Origin: an uncultured Candidatus Saccharibacteria bacterium
GTDB taxonomy: Bacteria; Patescibacteriota; Minisyncoccia; Phycocordibacterales; JAACPR01
Reading direction: 5' to 3'
DNA length: 62,827 nt
NCBI GenBank assembly: GCA_964470825.1
Contig: CAYYEF010000001.1
Coordinates: forward strand, 10,302-73,128
The notes below the pieces were generated by a model. That model was not told the origin of the DNA and made no database searches. It worked only from the letters and a program-made list of their open reading frames with translations. Position 1 is the stretch's first letter. The number at the start of each line of letters is the position of its first letter. This document shows positions 4,216 to 62,167 of the stretch, piece by piece. The translations under genes were made by a program, and so were the position numbers.

Positions 4216-4217
4216 TG

Positions 4218-4290
4218 TCCGCCCAGTAGGACTCGAACCTACGACCCTCTCCTTAAAAGGGAGTTGCTCTACCACCTGAGCTATGGGCGG
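4218..4290 (-). tRNA. tRNA-Lys (anticodon UUU)
   Basis: Reverse complement folds as a cloverleaf: acceptor CCGCCCA/TGGGCGG, D arm GCTC/GAGC, anticodon loop CTTTTAA, T arm GTAGG-TTCGAGT-CCTAC, discriminator A. No encoded CCA. Confidence 0.9.
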
Positions 4291-8486: not shown

Positions 8487-9053
8487 TTATTTTTTACTAC
8501 TTAAATTTTTTAAAGCCTCCTTAACAATCTCTTCTGTGTTTTCTTTATTTTTAATTTTTTGAACAGCATCACGAGCATCTCTTTCTGAGTAACCCAAAGC
8601 TGTTAGGGCATCAATTGCAAATGATCCAGCACCTTGAGCAGAATCATTATTCATAACCCCAACTTTATCTTTAAGACCCAACATTATTTTTTCAGCAGTT
8701 TTCTTACCAATTCCAGTGATCTTTGAAAAATAAATCGAATCACCTGACATTAGACCTTCGTTGATTGTTTCTAGACTCGCAGCACTCATTATGGTTATTG
8801 CAGACTTCGGACCAACTCCATTTATTGTTAAAAGTAATTCAAAAAAATTTAATTCATCCTTATTTAAGAATCCATATATATCAATTGCTGTTTCTCGAAC
8901 TGAAGTATAAAGCCATAAATTAGCAATTTTCCCTATATGAAAATTGTTAATTGTGTGAGGCGCTGCAAAAACCCTATATCCAACACCACCACTGTTAATA
9001 ATTAAGTCATTAAATCCTTTATCTATAACTTCTCCTGTAATCCATCTAAACAT
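8487..9053 (-). CDS. ruvA: Holliday junction DNA helicase subunit RuvA
   Basis: 188 aa. OB-fold N-terminus (GGVGYRV), HhH region LLTINGVGPKSA and GIGKKTAEKI, and a C-terminal domain III. Confidence 0.9.
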   Translation of the reverse strand: MFRWITGEVIDKGFNDLIINSGGVGYRVFAAPHTINNFHIGKIANLWLYTSVRETAIDIYGFLNKDELNFFELLLTINGVGPKSAITIMSAASLETINEGLMSGDSIYFSKITGIGKKTAEKIMLGLKDKVGVMNNDSAQGAGSFAIDALTALGYSERDARDAVQKIKNKENTEEIVKEALKNLSSKK

Positions 9054-9122
9054 ACTTAAATAATATCATATTTTAAATTAGTACTTTACAAAGAAAATAA
9101 AAGGCATAATATCTTTTTAGGT

Positions 9123-9530
9123 ATGAAACTAAGAACTTTGTCAGCATTGGATAGGGTGGAGTGTTTTCTTTACTCTATTAAAGAACAAGAAGATCTAAAA
9201 GGAAATCGTGTGGCCTTACCACCACTCTTTGATCTAAGAAAAGATCAGGAAGATTTTTGGAAAAATATTCTTGGGGTTTGTGCAGGAAAGCTTTTCGGTA
9301 TTTATAGTCAAAACCCCTTGGAAGAATTCAGAAATATTGTTCGACAATCCAGGATTATTTTTGAAGAAAAAGTCTTTAGTGAAGGTATTCTATGCTTCAA
9401 TAATAGGCCTTATGCTTGGGGTTATGATGTCATTCATAAAGCTGATCCTGAGTTTGCAGAAAATTTACAATATTTTGTTTCTATAATAGCTCTAGTTCCA
9501 AGAGGAGATTCACCAATCTATATATCTTAA
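9123..9530 (+). CDS. hypothetical protein (orphan)
   Basis: 135-aa ORF followed by the hairpin AAACTGACCATTTGGTCAGTTTTTT. No family recognised. Confidence 0.5.
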   Translation: MKLRTLSALDRVECFLYSIKEQEDLKGNRVALPPLFDLRKDQEDFWKNILGVCAGKLFGIYSQNPLEEFRNIVRQSRIIFEEKVFSEGILCFNNRPYAWGYDVIHKADPEFAENLQYFVSIIALVPRGDSPIYIS

Positions 9531-9637
9531 TAATTTAAACTGACCATTTGGTCAGTTTTTTATTTTTTAATAAAATAAGTTCTAGAGGCTATATTTCTTG
9601 CTTTTTTCTAAAACCTTTGGTAAAGTCTTGTGCATAT

Positions 9638-9901
9638 ATGGCAATTACAAAATCAGCAAAAAAAGCAATTAGAAGCTCTGAAAAAAAGAGAGTTTTGAAC
9701 TTGCGAAGAAGTCGAGATATGAAAGATGTCGAGAAAGAAGTTAAATCTCTTGTTGCTTCAGGTAAAGTGAAAGAAGCTCAAGAAAAACTAACTGTGGCTT
9801 ACAAAAAAATTGATAAAGCAGCTAAAATGAACACAATCAAGAAAAACACAGCTTCTCGAAAAAAATCTAGACTGAGCGCTTTAATCAAAAAGGCTAAATA
9901 A
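9638..9901 (+). CDS. rpsT: 30S ribosomal protein S20
   Basis: MAITKSAKKAIRSSEKKRVLNLRRS..., a basic helical 87-aa protein. Start moved from 9548 to ATG 9638. Confidence 0.85.
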   Translation: MAITKSAKKAIRSSEKKRVLNLRRSRDMKDVEKEVKSLVASGKVKEAQEKLTVAYKKIDKAAKMNTIKKNTASRKKSRLSALIKKAK

Positions 9902-9911
9902 TAAAAAGAAA

Positions 9912-9936
9912 AGTCGCCACAAGGGCGATTTTTTCT
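9912..9936 (+). terminator. rho-independent terminator after rpsT
   Basis: Stem TCGCC/GGCGA with loop ACAAG, then TTTTTT. Confidence 0.7.
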
Positions 9937-10097
9937 TTTTAAATATTTTTTATTAAAATCAAGACCGCTGTAAGGATTTCTTAAAGATTTTTTGGTATGT
10001 CAGGTTAAGGCATCTTGGTCAGGAATATACTTCATCAAAATTGCATTCTTGCAATTTCAAATCTCTCTGATAATCTTGTCTTTAGAAATAAAACCTT

Positions 10098-10355
10098 ATG
10101 AAAGCACTATTATTACTAGTAAGTTTTCTAACTCGACTCTGGGACCGACTTGATCAAAGATTGTGTCGCTCATTACCTGGACCTATTCGTTTTCGTTGGG
10201 CAAAACTGTGGGTCAGGAAAGATGAATTTCATCCCTCCCTTGATTCTCATGCTGAGTATGTTTATCGTCTTCCTGTAAGGGTGAGGGATAATTACTGGCA
10301 CAATCTCATCGAACGTAGACAAATCGCTCACGAACGTGATCTTTCAATAAATTAG
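10098..10355 (+). CDS. hypothetical small Arg/Trp-rich protein (orphan)
   Basis: 85-aa ORF with a hydrophobic N-terminus (MKALLLLVSFL). Own terminator immediately downstream. No family recognised. Confidence 0.45.
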   Translation: MKALLLLVSFLTRLWDRLDQRLCRSLPGPIRFRWAKLWVRKDEFHPSLDSHAEYVYRLPVRVRDNYWHNLIERRQIAHERDLSIN

Positions 10356-10358
10356 TTT

Positions 10359-10392
10359 CGCCGCCAGGTCATTGGACCTCTGGCGGTTTTTA
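10359..10392 (+). terminator. rho-independent terminator
   Basis: GC-rich stem CGCCGCCAGGTC/GACCTCTGGCGG (bulged) followed by TTTTT. Confidence 0.7.
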
Positions 10393-10429
10393 TTATTTTA
10401 ACTATTTCAGCAGATCTCTCTCAAAAGGG

Positions 10430-10501
10430 TGCTCCCGCTAGGAATCGAACCTAGATCGCAAGTTCCGCAAACTTGCATTCTATCCATTGAACTACGGGAG
10501 C
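10430..10501 (-). tRNA. tRNA-Arg (anticodon GCG)
   Basis: Reverse complement: GCTCCCG-TA-GTTC-AATGGATA-GAAT-G-CAAGT-TTGCGGA-ACTTG-CGAT-CTAGG-TTCGATT-CCTAG-CGGGAGC-A. Positions 34-36 of the anticodon loop read GCG. Confidence 0.85.
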
Positions 10502-10556
10502 TATTAAAACTTCTGCTTTGTAAATATATTTTATTTTAAAAATAAAGCAAGAAAAA

Positions 10557-11030
10557 CTAAAAACCCAATCTAGTAAGTATTTGTTGAATAGTTGGCTCGT
10601 ACATTTCTTCCTCATCTAAATATTCAATTAAGTATTCTCTGATTTCGTCTGGCCTAACTTGATCTCCAAGAGGAATTATTATCAGGGGCATAAATGTTTT
10701 TCTTGATTTAAGGATTATTCTGTCTCTATCGAATCCATCCTCATCAATTACATAAAAAGATTGAAGTGAGGCATATGTGTATAATATATCTCCAACCTGA
10801 ACACCTTTTCTATTTATTTGATAATCAACCATTCTTGGAGGATTATTTGCAACCATAAAGATAACAGCGGTCCCTATTATTACTAGTAGAGCAAATAGCA
10901 CATTATTAAAAAAAATTGCAAGAATAGATATTGCAATTGCAATAATTCCAATTACCCAAAACCAGTCAGAGCTTTTCTTTTCTCTTATATGATCTAGAGC
11001 TTGCCACGTTAATTTTTTAGAACCATTCAT
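10557..11030 (-). CDS. membrane protein (two TM helices plus a C-terminal soluble domain)
   Basis: 157 aa, with hydrophobic helices WFWVIGIIAIAISILAIFF and VLFALLVIIGTAVIFMV. Lies 19 nt downstream of the VKOR gene on the same strand. Confidence 0.55.
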   Translation of the reverse strand: MNGSKKLTWQALDHIREKKSSDWFWVIGIIAIAISILAIFFNNVLFALLVIIGTAVIFMVANNPPRMVDYQINRKGVQVGDILYTYASLQSFYVIDEDGFDRDRIILKSRKTFMPLIIIPLGDQVRPDEIREYLIEYLDEEEMYEPTIQQILTRLGF

Positions 11031-11049
11031 TTCCTTTATTATCTCTCTT

Positions 11050-12060
11050 TTATTTTTTCTTGTCGAGTGATTTTTTGTCTCTATATTGGAATGTTATCAG
11101 AGCTAATATTGCAGAAGTAAAAATTATTATTAAATAAGTCATTATGTTTCTTTTGAAAGAACAGGTGCATTGAAAAATTTGATTTATAAAAACATTTACT
11201 AACCAAGAAGTAAGGAGGATTGTACTAAAAGCTATTGCAATATTTCTATAAAATGAAACAGATGTAATATGCATTACATTACAAGCAATTTTTGATTTAT
11301 CTAATTTGGGTAAGATAAAGAAACTCATCATGATAGAGCCAAAAATTATAAATCCAAATATTAATGTTTTGATTAAGTAAATTCTTTGATTATCAAAAAC
11401 TTGTAATTGAAATACAAAAATAGCAAAACTAGATATTATGACCAAAAAGATTGCTGACCATAAAACCTGCCATAAATACATTAGGGTCAATTTTTCTTTT
11501 TGATCAATCTTGAAATCTTTTAAAAATTTTAAAGTTAAGAATTCTGAAATTATTGCGACGCTTGTTCCAAGAGCGTAAGCAAAGACATTTATTAAAATAA
11601 AAAACCAAGGTACACTCCTCATTAGATTAACAAGAATATCCAAGTTAAGATAAAAACTTATTGTAGAAATTATAAAAATAAGGGTAGAGAAAAGACTTGA
11701 GTATAAACACCAAGTGCACCAATTTTTTAAATAAAAAGCTTGAATTGAAGTAAGATATATAGAAAACAAGAATCCAAAAAGAGTAATTCCAAATAAAATT
11801 ATTTCAACCAGAGAGAATCTTAAGTTAGGAATAACTAAAAAAATAATATTCGCGATCAGTATTGATAGATAATAGGCAATACCCGCAATCTCCAATGGAA
11901 TACCAACTATTTTTGCAAAATCAGAGTTAAGGACTTGTTCGCAATTTCCATTTAGAGGACAAACCATTTTGTGTCCTCTTTTTTTCTCAATACGAATTTC
12001 ATTTGCGACGTATAGACCGCCCAAACTTAAAATAATTAAAATTATTTCATAAAAAAACAT
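11050..12060 (-). CDS. vitamin K epoxide reductase (VKOR) family protein with an extra polytopic C-terminal extension
   Basis: Loop cysteine pair CPLNGNC followed by the CTWC redox motif within TM helices, the VKOR arrangement. About 190 further residues of TM segments follow. Confidence 0.7.
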   Translation of the reverse strand: MFFYEIILIILSLGGLYVANEIRIEKKRGHKMVCPLNGNCEQVLNSDFAKIVGIPLEIAGIAYYLSILIANIIFLVIPNLRFSLVEIILFGITLFGFLFSIYLTSIQAFYLKNWCTWCLYSSLFSTLIFIISTISFYLNLDILVNLMRSVPWFFILINVFAYALGTSVAIISEFLTLKFLKDFKIDQKEKLTLMYLWQVLWSAIFLVIISSFAIFVFQLQVFDNQRIYLIKTLIFGFIIFGSIMMSFFILPKLDKSKIACNVMHITSVSFYRNIAIAFSTILLTSWLVNVFINQIFQCTCSFKRNIMTYLIIIFTSAILALITFQYRDKKSLDKKK

Positions 12061-12067
12061 TACATAT

Positions 12068-12076
12068 ATTCTATCA
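12068..12076 (-). promoter_or_regulatory. extended -10 element TGATAGAAT, 7 nt upstream of the VKOR ATG (12060)
   Basis: Reverse complement of ATTCTATCA. No SD between the element and the ATG. Confidence 0.45.
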
Positions 12077-12123
12077 CTTTACTTTTTTGAAAAAAGGAAT
12101 AAGTTAGATTCTAGGAGTTTTTT

Positions 12124-12447
12124 ATGAAAAATAAACATTCAAACCGTACGTGGTTCATCTATTCTTGCGATAGTCACACTAATCGCGCTGTGTTCATTGA
12201 ACTTAACTGTGATACAGAATTTGGTTGTTCTGTTCAGGATATTGACCATTTGGGTCAAAAGGTTAATAAGAACCTTAACTTGGCTAAACTTAATTCATAT
12301 GACGAAGTTCAACTTTTAAAAAGAAGTAAAAAACAGTTAGGGTTGAAATTCAAAGTTTTTATTCAGGATGATCCTGGCGGAAAAATTTATCGGTGGCCGT
12401 TTGATGAAGGATTAAGAACGGTCAGTCGTAAAGCAAAATCTCGCTGA
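12124..12447 (+). CDS. hypothetical protein (orphan)
   Basis: 107-aa ORF with a canonical SD AGGAG (12113-12117) 6 nt upstream and its own terminator. No family recognised. Confidence 0.6.
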   Translation: MKNKHSNRTWFIYSCDSHTNRAVFIELNCDTEFGCSVQDIDHLGQKVNKNLNLAKLNSYDEVQLLKRSKKQLGLKFKVFIQDDPGGKIYRWPFDEGLRTVSRKAKSR

Positions 12448-12466
12448 ATTTGGCGAGATTTTTTAT
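12436..12466 (+). terminator. rho-independent terminator
   Basis: Stem AAATCTCGC/GCGAGATTT with the stop codon TGA in the loop, then TTTTT. Confidence 0.75.
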
Positions 12467-12575
12467 TTCTGATTTCTGATTGATTTTTAAGTTGATTTCA
12501 GATAATATGTTGAAACTTGTTATTCTTTGATAATGAGTTAAAGTTAATAAACCGTCGTTTGAAAAAACGAGATAT

Positions 12576-12662
12576 GGAGAGGTGGCAGAGCGGTTGAATG
12601 CACCAGTCTTGAAAACTGGAATATCCGAAAGGGTATCAAGAGTTCGAATCTCTTCCTCTCCG
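12576..12662 (+). tRNA. tRNA-Ser (anticodon UGA), class II with long variable arm
   Basis: Acceptor GGAGAGG/CCTCTCC, anticodon arm CCAGT-CTTGAAA-ACTGG, long variable arm, T arm AAGAG-TTCGAAT-CTCTT, discriminator G. Confidence 0.9.
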
Positions 12663-58857: not shown

Positions 58858-59072
58858 TTGTATAAATTATAGCATGCACTTTTATAAAATAACTGTTTAT
58901 AAATAAGCACTTTCTTTAAAAGACGCTTAAAAACAAAATGTTTTAAAATGGCTCCTATATTTAGTATTTGACTTTTAAACTGTCCGTTATAAACTACCGG
59001 TGAATGTCCTAAAAGTCTTTTGATAAAAGACATCTATTATAAGCGCGTAAGAATTATAAAAGACAAAAAATT

Positions 59073-59870
59073 ATGGAAAATAATAAAAAGACATTGGAAC
59101 AATACAATGGAAAAGGTTCAGTAATAAAGGCTTTCATTAAAGACGGTGATTTGTCCTTTATAATTAAAAAGACAGAAAAAATAGCCACTGCTATATACTT
59201 GATCTCTAACTTTTTGAATGTTGAAGAACCATTGAAATGGGAGCTTAGAAAAATAGTTACAAAGCTTCTAAAAAATTTAATGTCTCTAAATGACACTTCT
59301 TTGTCTAATAAGGAAATGGTCATATCTAGAATCCAAAATGATTTTGTGGAATTAGAAGTCGTTTTTAATCTGACTTATAATTCTGGATTCATTTCAGATA
59401 TGAACTATCAAATTGTCATAGAAGAGATAAACAACCTATCTGTTCTGATCAATAACTATACAGATAGACAAATTTCTACTTCAAAGACTATTTTCAATAC
59501 TGACTATTTTAATGTTAAAAAAGAAAAGGAAAATAAAGAATCATCTTTAAAGGACATTATAAAGGACACTGTAAATCCTATAAAGGACAGAGTTATTTTT
59601 AAAGGAAATAAGACTGATTTAGATAGTTTCTTTAAAGATACTATTAAAGACAACAGACAGACAGTATCTAATAATGAAAACTCTCAATCTGAGAGAGGTG
59701 AAAAGATTATCCAAAAAATTAAAACTCACGGTCCTTTAACAATAAAAGAGATCTCTGAAGAATTTAAAGATTTAAGTGAAAAAACCATCCAAAGAGAGCT
59801 TCAAAAAATGTACGAAAAAGGTCAAATTAAGAAAGAGGGAGAGAGAAGGTGGACAAAATATTTTATTTAG
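59073..59870 (+). CDS. hypothetical regulator-like protein with a C-terminal winged-helix DNA-binding domain
   Basis: 265 aa. Helical N-terminal domain, a K/D-rich linker with repeated KD(T/I)(I/V)K motifs, and C-terminal LTIKEISEEFKDLSEKTIQRELQKMYEKGQIKKEGERRWTKY (wHTH-like). Confidence 0.55.
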   Translation: MENNKKTLEQYNGKGSVIKAFIKDGDLSFIIKKTEKIATAIYLISNFLNVEEPLKWELRKIVTKLLKNLMSLNDTSLSNKEMVISRIQNDFVELEVVFNLTYNSGFISDMNYQIVIEEINNLSVLINNYTDRQISTSKTIFNTDYFNVKKEKENKESSLKDIIKDTVNPIKDRVIFKGNKTDLDSFFKDTIKDNRQTVSNNENSQSERGEKIIQKIKTHGPLTIKEISEEFKDLSEKTIQRELQKMYEKGQIKKEGERRWTKYFI

Positions 59871-59897
59871 AAATTAAATTAAAAATACACCTATATA

Positions 59898-59926
59898 TTG
59901 ATAAAAAGCTGAAAATTTGCTATACT
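59898..59926 (+). promoter_or_regulatory. sigma70-like promoter (TTGATA, 17-nt spacer, TATACT)
   Basis: TTGATA at 59898-59903 and TATACT at 59921-59926, about 515 nt upstream of the next start codon. Confidence 0.55.
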
Positions 59927-59932
59927 AGTCCC

Positions 59933-60442
59933 GATAACTCTATTACAGGGGTTATCCACATTAGGGGCTTCAACCAATTAAGGTAAAGGTCTATAATGTT
60001 GATAACGGTTGGACGGGAGTAATTGTTGCACTGCGCGGTCATTGACAATCAAATAAAAAATGTCACTTGATTGCTTTGGTAATTTAAGAAAGAAATTCTA
60101 ATTCCTTTACGGTTAGTAAAAGATAGAAAAACTAATTCTAAAAAGCCGAGCTCTCAATATACATAATGTCGAGTCTGTAATTATTTCACTAAAAATAATT
60201 ACAGTTTATGTGTTTGAGAAATTGGTGATTGATTATCACATCCCGCGCCGATACGCGGTATCCCCGAATTTCAGAAATGTCTGAATGATTGGTTAGGTGT
60301 CGGACTAACTGGCTACTTCCGTGAGAAGAAGTGGTCTGCAAAGAAAATTATTATTAAACGTTTATTAGTAAGAAACATAAATTGATCCAAAATTTTTTAA
60401 AAGTTAACGGATCATTTTATTAATCAAAAAAAATTATAAAAC
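59933..60442 (+). ncRNA. long structured 5' leader and/or independent ncRNA upstream of the surface-protein gene
   Basis: About 510 nt with no ORF. Helices: TCCCG/CGGGA (59929-60018) enclosing GATAAC/GTTATC and CAACC/GGTTG; CAATCAA/TTGATTG (60046-60073); an 11-bp hairpin at 60175-60204; and a GC-richer block at 60240-60340 with four short hairpins. Confidence 0.45.
60175..60216 (+). terminator. terminator-like hairpin inside the leader (possible attenuator or 3' end of an sRNA)
   Basis: Perfect 11-bp stem CTGTAATTATT/AATAATTACAG with loop TCACTAAA, followed by TTTATGTGTTT. Confidence 0.4.
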
Positions 60443-62167
60443 ATGCGTAAATATTTATTAGGCGCTTTCGCAACTACAGCATTATTTGCTTTTGTAGTTG
60501 TTGCTGACGCCGCAACATATACACGTGATCTAACTATTGGTTCAACAGGTTCAGATGTAGTAGCTCTACAAGACATGTTGATCGCTTCAGGAGATCTAGT
60601 GTTGCCAGCTGGAGTATCAAAAGGATACTTTGGTTCATTAACAAAATCAGCTCTTGCAAAATGGCAAGCTAAGAATGGTATTACACCAGCAGCTGGATAC
60701 TTTGGTCCAATTACAAGAGCTAAAGCAGAAGGTTCATCAACATCAACAGGTGGTTCATCAACAGGTGGTTCATCAACTTCACTTAAAGGTGGAGACGGAG
60801 ATGTTCAATCAGTAGATAAAACTACTTCAGGAACAGAAACAACTCTTGGAGAAGGTAAAACAGAAGATGTTCTAGGTTTCGATCTAGAAGCTGATGACAA
60901 CTCAGATCTTGACGTAACTTCAGTTCGAGTTGAAATTACAACAGCAACTGGAGAAACATCAAGAATTAGCAAATACCTTGATTCAGCAGCTATCACTTTA
61001 GATGGTGAAGAAGTTGGTTCAGTAGATGCTTCTGATTTTTCAAGAACAGGTTCAGTTTCAAAAGCAACAATCGCTCTTAAAGATGCAGTTGTAAAAGCTG
61101 GTGAAAAAGGACGATTCTACGTAACTCTTACAGCAGCTGATTCAATTAACGACTCAGAACTAGATGCAACACTAGATGTTGTAGTAGATCGAGTTAGAGT
61201 TGAAGATGCTAACGGAGCAGTTCTTACAGAAGATGTTACAGGAGTTGACGCAACAGTTGACTTCGAAGATGCAACAGCAAACGATGATGCAAGAATCAAA
61301 TCAGATTCTGCAACTCGAGAAGCTGGTCTTCTAAAAGTTGAAGAAAACAAAACATCAGAAGATTATGATCTAGTATCATTTAAATTTGATGTTGATCAAG
61401 ATTCATCAGATCTTGTTGTAACAGAACTTCCAGTTGAATTAACTATCGTTAATGGTTCATCAACAGGTGCTCTTAATATTGAATCAATGATTCAAGATCT
61501 ATGGGTAGAAGTTGATGGAAACAAATACGATGATTATGCATGGGGAACAAACGTATCAGTTGCAGCAGGAGCAACAGAAGTTGCTACAGCTACAATTTCA
61601 ATCGATGAAGGTGATTTAGAAATCGCTTCAGATGATGTAGTGGATGCAGTTGTGTTTGTTAAGCTTGCAAAACAATCAGGAAACTATGCTGAAGGTACAA
61701 AAATCACAGCAAAAGTTACTGGTTCACAAATCGACGCTGAAAACACAGAAGGAGATAACTTTGACGTAAGTGGAACAGTTACTGGTAAAGAACAAACACT
61801 TCAAATCTCAGCTGCTACAGTTGAAGATTACAAGTGGTCAGTAAACAACACTGGAAACATTGTTGACTTCTTCTTCACAGTTACAGCAGAAGATGAAGAC
61901 TTTAACGTTCTATCATCAAGTATTGCTTCAACAACATCAGGTACAGCAACAACTTCAGCTGGAGTTCTATCTCTAAGTACAGGTGACGCTGATACAATCT
62001 CTGGTGGATTCAAAGTTCTTGATGGAGATACAGCTACATTCCGAGTACGATACACATTGTCAGGTGTAAACGGAACATACCGAGAAGTGAAAATTACATC
62101 AGTTGCAGGACAAGAAGTGCCTAAGGCAAATCAAATCTCACCTACAGCAACTATTAATATTCAATAA
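60443..62167 (+). CDS. secreted peptidoglycan-binding, acidic T/S/V/D/A-rich surface protein (S-layer-like candidate)
   Basis: Signal peptide MRKYLLGAFATTALFAFVVVADA. PG_binding_1-like domain (GSTGSDVVALQDML...GYFGSLTKSALAKWQAKNGI...GYFGPIT). GSST linker, then about 450 aa with no Cys and beta-rich. Very uniform A/T-ending codon choice (TCA, ACA, GTT, GCT, GGT). Strong terminator downstream. Confidence 0.8.
   Translation: MRKYLLGAFATTALFAFVVVADAATYTRDLTIGSTGSDVVALQDMLIASGDLVLPAGVSKGYFGSLTKSALAKWQAKNGITPAAGYFGPITRAKAEGSSTSTGGSSTGGSSTSLKGGDGDVQSVDKTTSGTETTLGEGKTEDVLGFDLEADDNSDLDVTSVRVEITTATGETSRISKYLDSAAITLDGEEVGSVDASDFSRTGSVSKATIALKDAVVKAGEKGRFYVTLTAADSINDSELDATLDVVVDRVRVEDANGAVLTEDVTGVDATVDFEDATANDDARIKSDSATREAGLLKVEENKTSEDYDLVSFKFDVDQDSSDLVVTELPVELTIVNGSSTGALNIESMIQDLWVEVDGNKYDDYAWGTNVSVAAGATEVATATISIDEGDLEIASDDVVDAVVFVKLAKQSGNYAEGTKITAKVTGSQIDAENTEGDNFDVSGTVTGKEQTLQISAATVEDYKWSVNNTGNIVDFFFTVTAEDEDFNVLSSSIASTTSGTATTSAGVLSLSTGDADTISGGFKVLDGDTATFRVRYTLSGVNGTYREVKITSVAGQEVPKANQISPTATINIQ
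60731..60778 (+). repeat. short tandem repeat encoding the GSST linker
   Basis: GGTGGTTCATCAACA occurs twice in tandem (60749-60778) after a partial copy at 60731-60742. Encodes GSSTSTGGSSTGGSST. Confidence 0.7.

Follow-up and report, generated by a model that had tools for sequence, protein, structure and literature searches.

A DnaA box and an rRNA-type boxA in the predicted promoter region and leader of a surface-protein gene in an order of Patescibacteria

What does the long gap in front of a candidate major surface-protein gene of an uncultured Candidatus Saccharibacteria bacterium do? In the window, by which we mean the whole 62,827-nt stretch of DNA that was analysed, the stop codon of a gene for a helix-turn-helix (HTH) protein (59870) and the ATG of the surface-protein gene (60443) are separated by around 570 bases (59871-60442) that contain no long open reading frame (ORF). 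An earlier note on this DNA had placed here a structured leader or non-coding RNA with the geometry of a riboswitch or attenuator. Our comparison with related genomes suggests that the stretch is rather probably the promoter region and an untranslated leader, around 440-510 nt long, of the mRNA for a major peptidoglycan-anchored surface protein, and that it carries two signals: a DnaA box and a boxA, the antitermination signal of ribosomal RNA (rRNA) operons.

A conserved layout upstream of the surface-protein gene

The window lies in genome G000, a 562-kb assembly of ~31% GC that is of the ultra-small Patescibacteria type; relatives' genomes are labelled in the same way (G016, G059 and so on). 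For the family we compared the DNA 3′ of the HTH-gene orthologs in a set of 33 genomes, and for the order we used 151 sampled genomes. The gene behind the gap is the following:

60443-62167, plus strand: gene for a 574-aa secreted protein with an N-terminal PG_binding_1 domain, the candidate major surface protein

The orthologous gene for a secreted peptidoglycan-binding protein is preceded by this layout in 12 genera within the family, and it recurs in more than 10 further families of the order. Orthologs of the PG_binding_1 gene stand behind the leader throughout the family, and in 118 of the 151 order genomes. Nearly all family gaps are 300-600 nt long, contain a series of common blocks in the same order, and end at a secreted protein whose start resembles that in the window (...AYTRDLTIGSTGSDV...). 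Across relatives the element measures 265 to 506 nt.

The gap does not appear to be coding, as the earlier note had held: it has neither a long ORF nor one shared with relatives, and downstream of the second promoter described below there is not a single ATG-initiated ORF of at least 15 codons. A leader peptide was rejected because no such ORF is conserved and several leaders contain none of at least 15 codons.

Two predicted promoters flank a DnaA box

The 5′ end of the region holds the following features:

59898-59926, plus strand: promoter P1, TTGATA-17-TATACT with an extended TG, predicted start near 59933
59933-59956, plus strand: P1-proximal stem GATAAC/GTTATC, in which the 5′ half of the DnaA box pairs with its upstream complement
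59952-59960, plus strand: perfect DnaA box TTATCCACA, the consensus 9-mer and the sole perfect copy in the window
59969-59997, plus strand: promoter P2, TTCAAC-17-TATAAT, predicted start near 60004
59997-60005, minus strand: inverted DnaA-box-like 9-mer TTATCAACA with one mismatch, overlapping the P2 -10 and start (the second GATAAC copy of the earlier note)

P1 is the promoter that had been reported about 515 nt before 60443, and it is indeed there, matching the consensus at 10 of 12 positions. The match alone proves nothing, since a promoter scan returned 8 promoter-like sites compared with 7.7 in shuffled sequences. A TTGAYT-17-TAnnAT promoter occupies the P1-equivalent position in most family genomes. 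Around 70 nt further downstream lies P2, which has TATAAT or TACAAT as its -10 in every one of the 24 family regions with a DnaA box. Its -35 is TTTACA or TTAACA with a spacer of 16-17 nt in genera g8-g12, and TTCAAC in G000; overall the -35 to -10 distance is 16-18 nt and the -10 perfect or near-perfect. The relatives have no conserved promoter near the ATG (last 150 nt).

The order of elements is P1, DnaA box, P2, so that the box spans about +20 to +28 relative to P1 and about -52 to -44 relative to P2. It conforms to the consensus for DnaA-regulated promoters (TTATCCACA or TTWTNCACA), and TTATCCACA is found in unchanged orientation in 20 of 27 family regions, with TTTTCCACA in 5 more. In 24 family regions the end of the box lies 7-12 nt before the P2 -35, that is, at a fixed place in the promoter. 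Outside the family, 13 of the 19 orthologous upstream regions with a recognisable start carry a perfect TTATCCACA 270-640 nt upstream of it, in the arrangement box-N(25-36)-TATAAT, followed by a TTGACAA..AATA motif. Between P1 and boxA the only invariant columns are GTT(A/T)TCCACA and TA(T/C)AAT.

G000 encodes dnaA (C5:1392-1877) and contains 17 copies of TTATCCACA, of which 13 lie outside long ORFs. Permuted 9-mers have 0.8 copies there on average, which makes TTATCCACA around 16-fold enriched outside long ORFs. A literature search returned no paper combining 'DnaA box' with 'Patescibacteria'. We rejected a replication origin for this region because GC skew is positive throughout the window, without a switch, and the perfect box is single.

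The conservation of P2 means that much of what the earlier note drew as a closed multi-helix RNA domain (59929-60216) is promoter DNA. The complementary words are present, and in G000 the segment 59929-60020 folds with -31 kcal/mol; their conservation as RNA did not hold up. Over 17 orthologous regions the TCCCG/CGGGA, GATAAC/GTTATC and CAACC/GGTTG helices were 51% paired compared with 49% in shuffles, a level that 76 of 500 shuffles reached, with the outer helix at 40% and CAACC/GGTTG at 43%. The alternative pairing of GATAAC with GTTATC, which had been proposed as a switch, involves the DnaA box and P2 and thus DNA signals, and TTATCAACA at 59997-60005 is not kept in relatives. The P1-proximal helix is 69% paired in a MAFFT alignment, a method that is imperfect for leaders this divergent. 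In relatives other segments of the box pair with the upstream arm (TGTGGAT/ATCCACA, GGGTAAC/GTTATCC and others), and the upstream complement could form a 5′ RNA stem when transcribed from P1, or it could be a second DnaA box that is partial and inverted.

Perfect boxes elsewhere in G000 include one 30 nt upstream of a dnaN-like gene (C5:647), others upstream of two LexA-like/HTH genes (C19:9524, C4:24530), and two inverted boxes 21 nt apart upstream of a gene for a 793-aa protein on C14. At C19:9593 and C5:28355 the distance from box to -10 is 32-33 nt, equal to the spacing at P2. Two 40-bp tandem repeats at C12:1800-1920, very AT-rich and each with a perfect TTATCCACA, lie around 300 nt before a gene for an 842-aa protein; they are either a candidate origin or another promoter fronted by DnaA boxes. 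In some relatives perfect boxes touch rRNA promoters as well: the 16S -35 of G025 has TGTGGATAA 3 nt upstream of it, and in the 16S promoter of G019 the box falls within the spacer (TTGAC-TTATCCACA-...-TATAAT).

An rRNA-type boxA in an order without Rho

Downstream of P2 we found a second conserved signal:

60036-60057, plus strand: rrn-type boxA CGGTCATTGACAATCAAATAAA, around 40 nt after the P2 -10 and around 35 nt into the predicted P2 transcript

The rRNA leaders of G000 itself provide the comparison: the 16S leader has the boxA GGAACTTTGACAAATCAATATG, after a promoter and a boxB-like hairpin, and the 23S leader has TGTAGTTTGAAAACTAAATACT. Set against its own 16S leader (GAACTTTGACAAATCAATA), the surface-gene leader (GGTCATTGACAATCAAATA) has a boxA of the same sequence type. 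Because a simple boxA regular expression is unspecific in the AT-rich G000 genome (5 matches compared with 3.2 in shuffles), we relied on orthologous position and on a weight matrix derived from the rrn boxA sites of 12 family genomes, having collected the 16S leaders of 15 relatives. The best match to this matrix fell +40 to +60 from the P2 -10 in 25 of 26 surface-gene leaders, and for 22 of the 26 leaders the boxA score was unmatched by any of 300 shuffles. With a leave-one-out matrix applied to the whole G000 genome, the 23S leader ranked first and the 16S leader second. Relative to the predicted start, the boxA is promoter-proximal; in G064, G040 and G133 it comes as close as 8-14 nt after the -10. 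The rrn leaders have a clear CCUCC...GGAGG hairpin before boxA, whereas the surface-gene leaders have weak, non-homologous hairpins there.

A domain search that covered NusB detected it in G000 (C2:59080-59472, 109 bits). The same genome has no Rho_RNA_bind domain, and none of the 151 order genomes had a Rho RNA-binding domain over the Pfam cut-off, whereas the search did detect it in 9 control genomes that have Rho. With Rho absent from G000 and from the order, boxA cannot serve to counter Rho here.

As boxA is typical of stable RNAs, the 5′ part could instead be a separate stable non-coding RNA, transcribed from P2 with its boxA and freed by processing or termination, the gene being merely downstream or using the processed 3′ part as a short leader. 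Processing at the long stem described below would leave a hairpin-capped mRNA, and G000 has a comparable free-standing unit (C5:28355-28690) in which TTATCCACA is followed after 9 nt by TTTACA-17-TATTAT, a boxA-like GAGTTCTTTGAAATAG and around 280 nt without an ORF. At the locus studied here, however, there is no terminator between P2 and the ATG and no conserved promoter in the last 150 nt, the conserved elements run continuously to around 30 nt before the ATG, and the unit always accompanies the surface-protein gene. We therefore consider a separate RNA distinctly unlikely.

Within the unit at C5:28355-28690 there is also AGCCAA...GGGTGATTCAT, and its end is marked by a weak hairpin followed by T6. 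It has no match in Rfam, and its sequence looks like that of a free-standing non-coding RNA gene.

The rRNA genes of G000 are unlinked on C13: the 23S (9029-12649) and 5S genes lie together, and the 5′ part of the 16S gene is 8 kb away at the contig end. The 23S and 16S genes each have their own promoter and boxA. At 3.6 kb compared with the 2.9-kb model, the 23S gene must hold around 0.7 kb of insertions.

A strongly folded leader with covarying hairpins

Beyond boxA, the leader is made up of the following blocks:

60109-60122, plus strand: conserved block ACGGTTAGTAAAAG, family consensus ACGGTYAGTTAA, also found in G059 of another family
60145-60226, plus strand: long stem-loop with conserved base GCYAA/UUGGU and variable apex, -27.7 kcal/mol, z -5.4
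60222-60230, plus strand: conserved TTGGTGATT block, comprising the 3′ side of the basal helix and a tail that is single-stranded
60243-60258, plus strand: CCGCG-N6-CGCGG hairpin, its five pairs invariant in 11 sequences from five genera
60291-60310, plus strand: GGTTAG-N8-CTAACT hairpin (RNAalifold pairs 79-98), with GC-to-AU and AU-to-GC double changes
60348-60371, plus strand: AT-rich near-palindrome TTATTATTAAACGTTTATTAGTAA, either a hairpin in the RNA or an operator in the DNA
60382-60414, plus strand: last hairpin, TTGATCC-loop-GGATCA, whose large AU-rich loop ends in TAAC
60415-60442, plus strand: A-rich unpaired stretch, the 28 nt before the ATG, without a Shine-Dalgarno sequence

The segment 59929-60345 folds with -120.3 kcal/mol (z = -5.5 against shuffles), and 24 of 26 family leaders have a fold z below -2, with a median of -4.1. 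GC content rises to 42-44% over 60200-60349 from ~31% for the window, as the earlier note had seen. This folding, together with the covariation of the hairpins, bears out one of the possibilities that the note had raised, a single long structured leader of the kind known for S-layer genes.

At the base of the long stem GAAGCYAA pairs with UUGGUG, and the lower pairs covary; an internal GUCGA motif lies at 60168-60172. Equivalent hairpins of 20-90 nt, identical in their closing pairs and different in their inner stems, are present in 17 family genomes, and the apex sequence differs in every genus. In G000 the apex is an AU-rich 12-bp hairpin (60175-60204, -10.2 kcal/mol). This is the terminator-like hairpin of the earlier note, and the 'T-rich tract' behind it is the 3′ (descending) strand of the long stem. 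Relatives have no U-tract after the stem, and a terminator scan of 59000-61000 called no plus-strand terminator; the feature is thus better described as the tip of a conserved stem. In the TTGGTGATT block the GGTG is invariant, as are T50, A51 and T52 (first-sequence numbering of alignment A5). We rejected this block as a STAB-SD-like ribosome site because the family 16S rRNA lacks a CCUCC/AUCACC tail.

Four short hairpins had been listed for the GC-rich part. CCGCG/CGCGG is invariant in five genera, and in others its place is taken by a covarying hairpin whose loop reads GGUACGU. By contrast, TTCAGA/TCTGAA and CTACTTC/GAAGTGG are private to G000; GTGAT/ATCAC overlaps the TTGGTGATT block. A fifth hairpin, GGTTAG/CTAAC, had not been listed, and it covaries. 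The covariation sought among orthologs therefore exists for several downstream hairpins, and not for the helices of the 5′ domain.

The last hairpin has double changes at 9 of 10 pairs in 11 sequences. Its covariation is 0.40 compared with 0.20 in shuffles (reached by 0 of 500), and at most 0.16 when the pairing is slid. Hairpins with differing stems occur at this place in all family genomes and in other families. A covariance model (R1) built from the palindrome and last hairpin of 11 sequences matched only the genera from which it was built, and the homology of the 3′ module across genera hence rests on position and on per-sequence folds.

The 16S rRNA 3′ ends of G029, G026, G015 and G007 (...GTGGATTAT or ...GTGGAATAT) lack the CCUCC anti-Shine-Dalgarno, which fits the missing Shine-Dalgarno sequence before the surface-protein gene. 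These four ends read ...GCGGAAGCTG(C/T)TCGTGGATTAT or ...GGAATAT, and the canonical GGATCACCTCCTT tail is missing.

Does the leader sense something? Strong and conserved folding, together with conserved unpaired blocks and loops that families have in common (ACGGTYAGTTAA, the GUCGA loop and the AU-rich loop with TAAC at its end), would suit a sensor RNA, whether a riboswitch or a switch bound by a protein or tRNA, that controls read-through or translation of the surface-protein mRNA. Such a sensor would be of an undescribed class, as no catalogued family matches. At the gathering threshold Rfam gave zero matches to the region and 24 orthologous regions, and at E values up to 10 with permissive filters only chance-level small nucleolar RNA and small RNA models appeared. 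The ydaO-yuaA (RF00379, c-di-AMP) family, which the earlier note had singled out for this check, was not among them. The parts of a switch are likewise missing: there is no terminator/antiterminator pair, the sole hairpin resembling a terminator forms the tip of a conserved stem, and a Shine-Dalgarno sequence that could be sequestered is absent, in a family whose 16S rRNA lacks the anti-Shine-Dalgarno. The aptamer-like domain of the earlier note is unconserved (51% versus 49%), and lengths of 265-506 nt, with the whole 5′ half lost in G016, are unlike a compact aptamer. Without a terminator or an Rfam match, and with the alternative pairing traced to DNA signals, the riboswitch or attenuator geometry is not supported, and we judge a sensor RNA unlikely. 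A hidden tmRNA, RNase P, SRP or 6S RNA was also rejected, as no model matched and ARAGORN found no tmRNA in the region or the genome.

The AT-rich palindrome and the neighbouring HTH protein

The gene directly 5′ of the gap bears on how the near-palindrome TTATTATTAAACGTTTATTAGTAA is read:

59073-59870, plus strand: upstream neighbour, gene for a 265-aa protein with a C-terminal DeoR-like winged HTH (Pfam HTH_DeoR, residues 208-254)

An ortholog of this gene lies directly 5′ of the leader in 28 of the 33 family genomes, and G113, which belongs to another family, has one there too. The recognition helix of the protein, SEKTxQRxL, hardly varies. More widely, the HTH and wing (SEKT[IL]QR.L ... 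GERRW.[KRT]Y) are almost invariant over 12 genera and G113, and the linker is highly variable.

The palindrome occurs once in the genome. It comprises 9 pairs that are 94% paired. One of these covaries (AU:6, GC:5), and a U-G is conserved; the left arm is variable and has an unpaired position. Other genera have different AT-rich palindromes at this place (TAAACGTTTA, TTAATAATTAATTATTAA, GTTATTAACGTTAATAAC and GTAATTAATTAC). This symmetrical change between genera is what one would see in an operator, the HTH gene is always adjacent, and the invariant columns of the 5′ part are DNA signals, all of which would suit conservation at the DNA level only: a dense regulatory region (or an origin), with a palindrome bound by the neighbouring HTH protein and RNA folds that are incidental. 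Yet the HTH helix hardly changes from one palindrome type to another (REL occurs with types I and III, RTL and RDL with type II), and the variable left arm, the unpaired position and the conserved U-G also speak against this reading. The hairpins moreover stay paired by way of double changes and G-U pairs, and their stems are entirely different from genus to genus; the origin variant meets the unswitched GC skew and the single perfect box. Conservation as DNA alone is thus very unlikely. The constancy of the HTH helix across palindrome types, together with the unpaired position and the conserved U-G, makes us lean to an RNA hairpin, and the palindrome as an operator of the HTH protein is weakened; it is conceivable that the target of this protein is invariant, for example the DnaA-box region.

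A model for the leader

From what was directly observed (the sequence elements, how they are conserved and covary, the genes for NusB and DnaA, and the lack of Rho), we infer transcript starts, protein binding and effects on expression as follows. Transcription would proceed from two tandem sigma-70 promoters, starting near 59933 (P1) and near 60004 (P2). DnaA would bind the single, high-affinity box between them, hindering P1, helping P2, or both, and could thereby tie expression of the envelope protein to the state of replication. The boxA would load NusB, NusE (S10) and other Nus factors on RNA polymerase, the benefit being fast transcription, resistant to pauses and hairpins, through around 400 nt of untranslated structured RNA; the Nus complex might perhaps also guide folding of the leader. 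The long stem and the CGCG, GGTTAG/CTAAC, AU-rich palindromic and last hairpins would shield the message from nucleases, and the leader would present an open A/U-rich landing site to ribosomes without an anti-Shine-Dalgarno.

Several points weigh against a DnaA-controlled, Nus-assisted stabilising leader. The distance between the box and the -35 varies by 5 nt, which is loose for an activator that depends on the face of the helix, and the two start sites, like the continuity of the transcript, are predicted from sequence. The boxA of the G000 leader has a moderate score of 11.3, which 3 of 300 shuffles reach, and in the leave-one-out search it ranks under 8 genome sites scoring above 12; because of this moderate score its identification leans on orthologous position. 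G016 lacks boxA and the leader middle and retains the surface-protein gene, so that boxA is dispensable at least there. Without Rho, the classical reason for a boxA on an untranslated leader is missing. Finally, the conserved single-stranded blocks (ACGGTYAGTTAA, GUCGA, TTGGTGAWTAT and the loop ...TTTAnAAnTAAC) exceed the needs of a simple stabiliser and hint at a specific partner.

A variant in which DnaA gating and a boxA-loaded Nus complex are combined with conserved loops (GUCGA, ACGGUYAGUUAA and the AU-rich TAAC loop), the leader acting through them as an undescribed protein- or ligand-binding riboregulator that sets translation without a Shine-Dalgarno sequence, is one that we regard as tentative and unlikely.

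Relation to known systems

In the Escherichia coli dnaA promoter region, a DnaA box lies between the promoters dnaAp1 and dnaAp2. Both systems have tandem promoters with the consensus TTATCCACA between them; here the target is a surface-protein gene and not a replication gene, and the arrangement appears from sequence to be fixed across an order of Patescibacteria. More generally, DnaA is a transcription factor that represses or activates according to position (reviewed in PMC8203912).

The leader preferred here resembles that of rRNA operons (boxB-boxA-boxC; NusB, NusE/S10, NusA, NusG, SuhB and S4) in having one or more strong sigma-70 promoters, a promoter-proximal boxA and a long structured untranslated RNA. 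It differs in that a protein-coding gene lies downstream, that no clear conserved boxB hairpin was found before boxA, and that the order is without Rho. That boxA occurs upstream of non-rRNA genes, E. coli suhB and others, and that Nus factors act on mRNAs is established (Baniulyte et al. 2017, PMC5725501). The E. coli suhB boxA is adjacent to the Shine-Dalgarno sequence and acts by repressing translation and promoting termination by Rho (PMC5725501), whereas the boxA described here is around 400 nt from the start codon, with neither a Shine-Dalgarno sequence nor Rho.

Lactobacillus slpA has two promoters, a long 5′ untranslated leader and a stable mRNA (Boot et al. 1996, as cited in PMC3666127). 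The likeness lies in tandem promoters and a long structured leader before the most abundant surface protein, and the predicted promoters give our locus the same S-layer-type combination of tandem promoters and long untranslated leader. Leaders of the slpA type are shorter, depend on a hairpin at the 5′ end together with a Shine-Dalgarno sequence, and have not been described as carrying a boxA or a DnaA box. With ydaO-yuaA (RF00379), the region shares a long structured leader of a cell-wall-related gene; unlike that family, it has no match to the model and no expression platform.

If this account is true, an rRNA antitermination signal on a protein-coding gene in the absence of Rho would isolate the Rho-independent functions of Nus factors. 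With DnaA at a constant position in the promoter of its most abundant envelope protein, a regulator-poor genome would have a simple way to couple growth of the surface to the cell cycle. A gene translated without Shine-Dalgarno pairing would be preceded by a large conserved leader RNA, and these little-studied ultra-small bacteria would provide a concrete, order-wide example of all three.

A tRNA gene elsewhere in the window

On the minus strand at 4217-4290 the window contains a well-formed tRNA gene with the 7-nt anticodon loop UUUUAAG and the anticodon UUA, which would decode the stop codon UAA. ARAGORN calls it tRNA-Stop, and it scores 67 bits with the Rfam tRNA model. Genes in the window appear intact under table 11 despite this tRNA, which could be a suppressor, phage-derived, or a modified reader.

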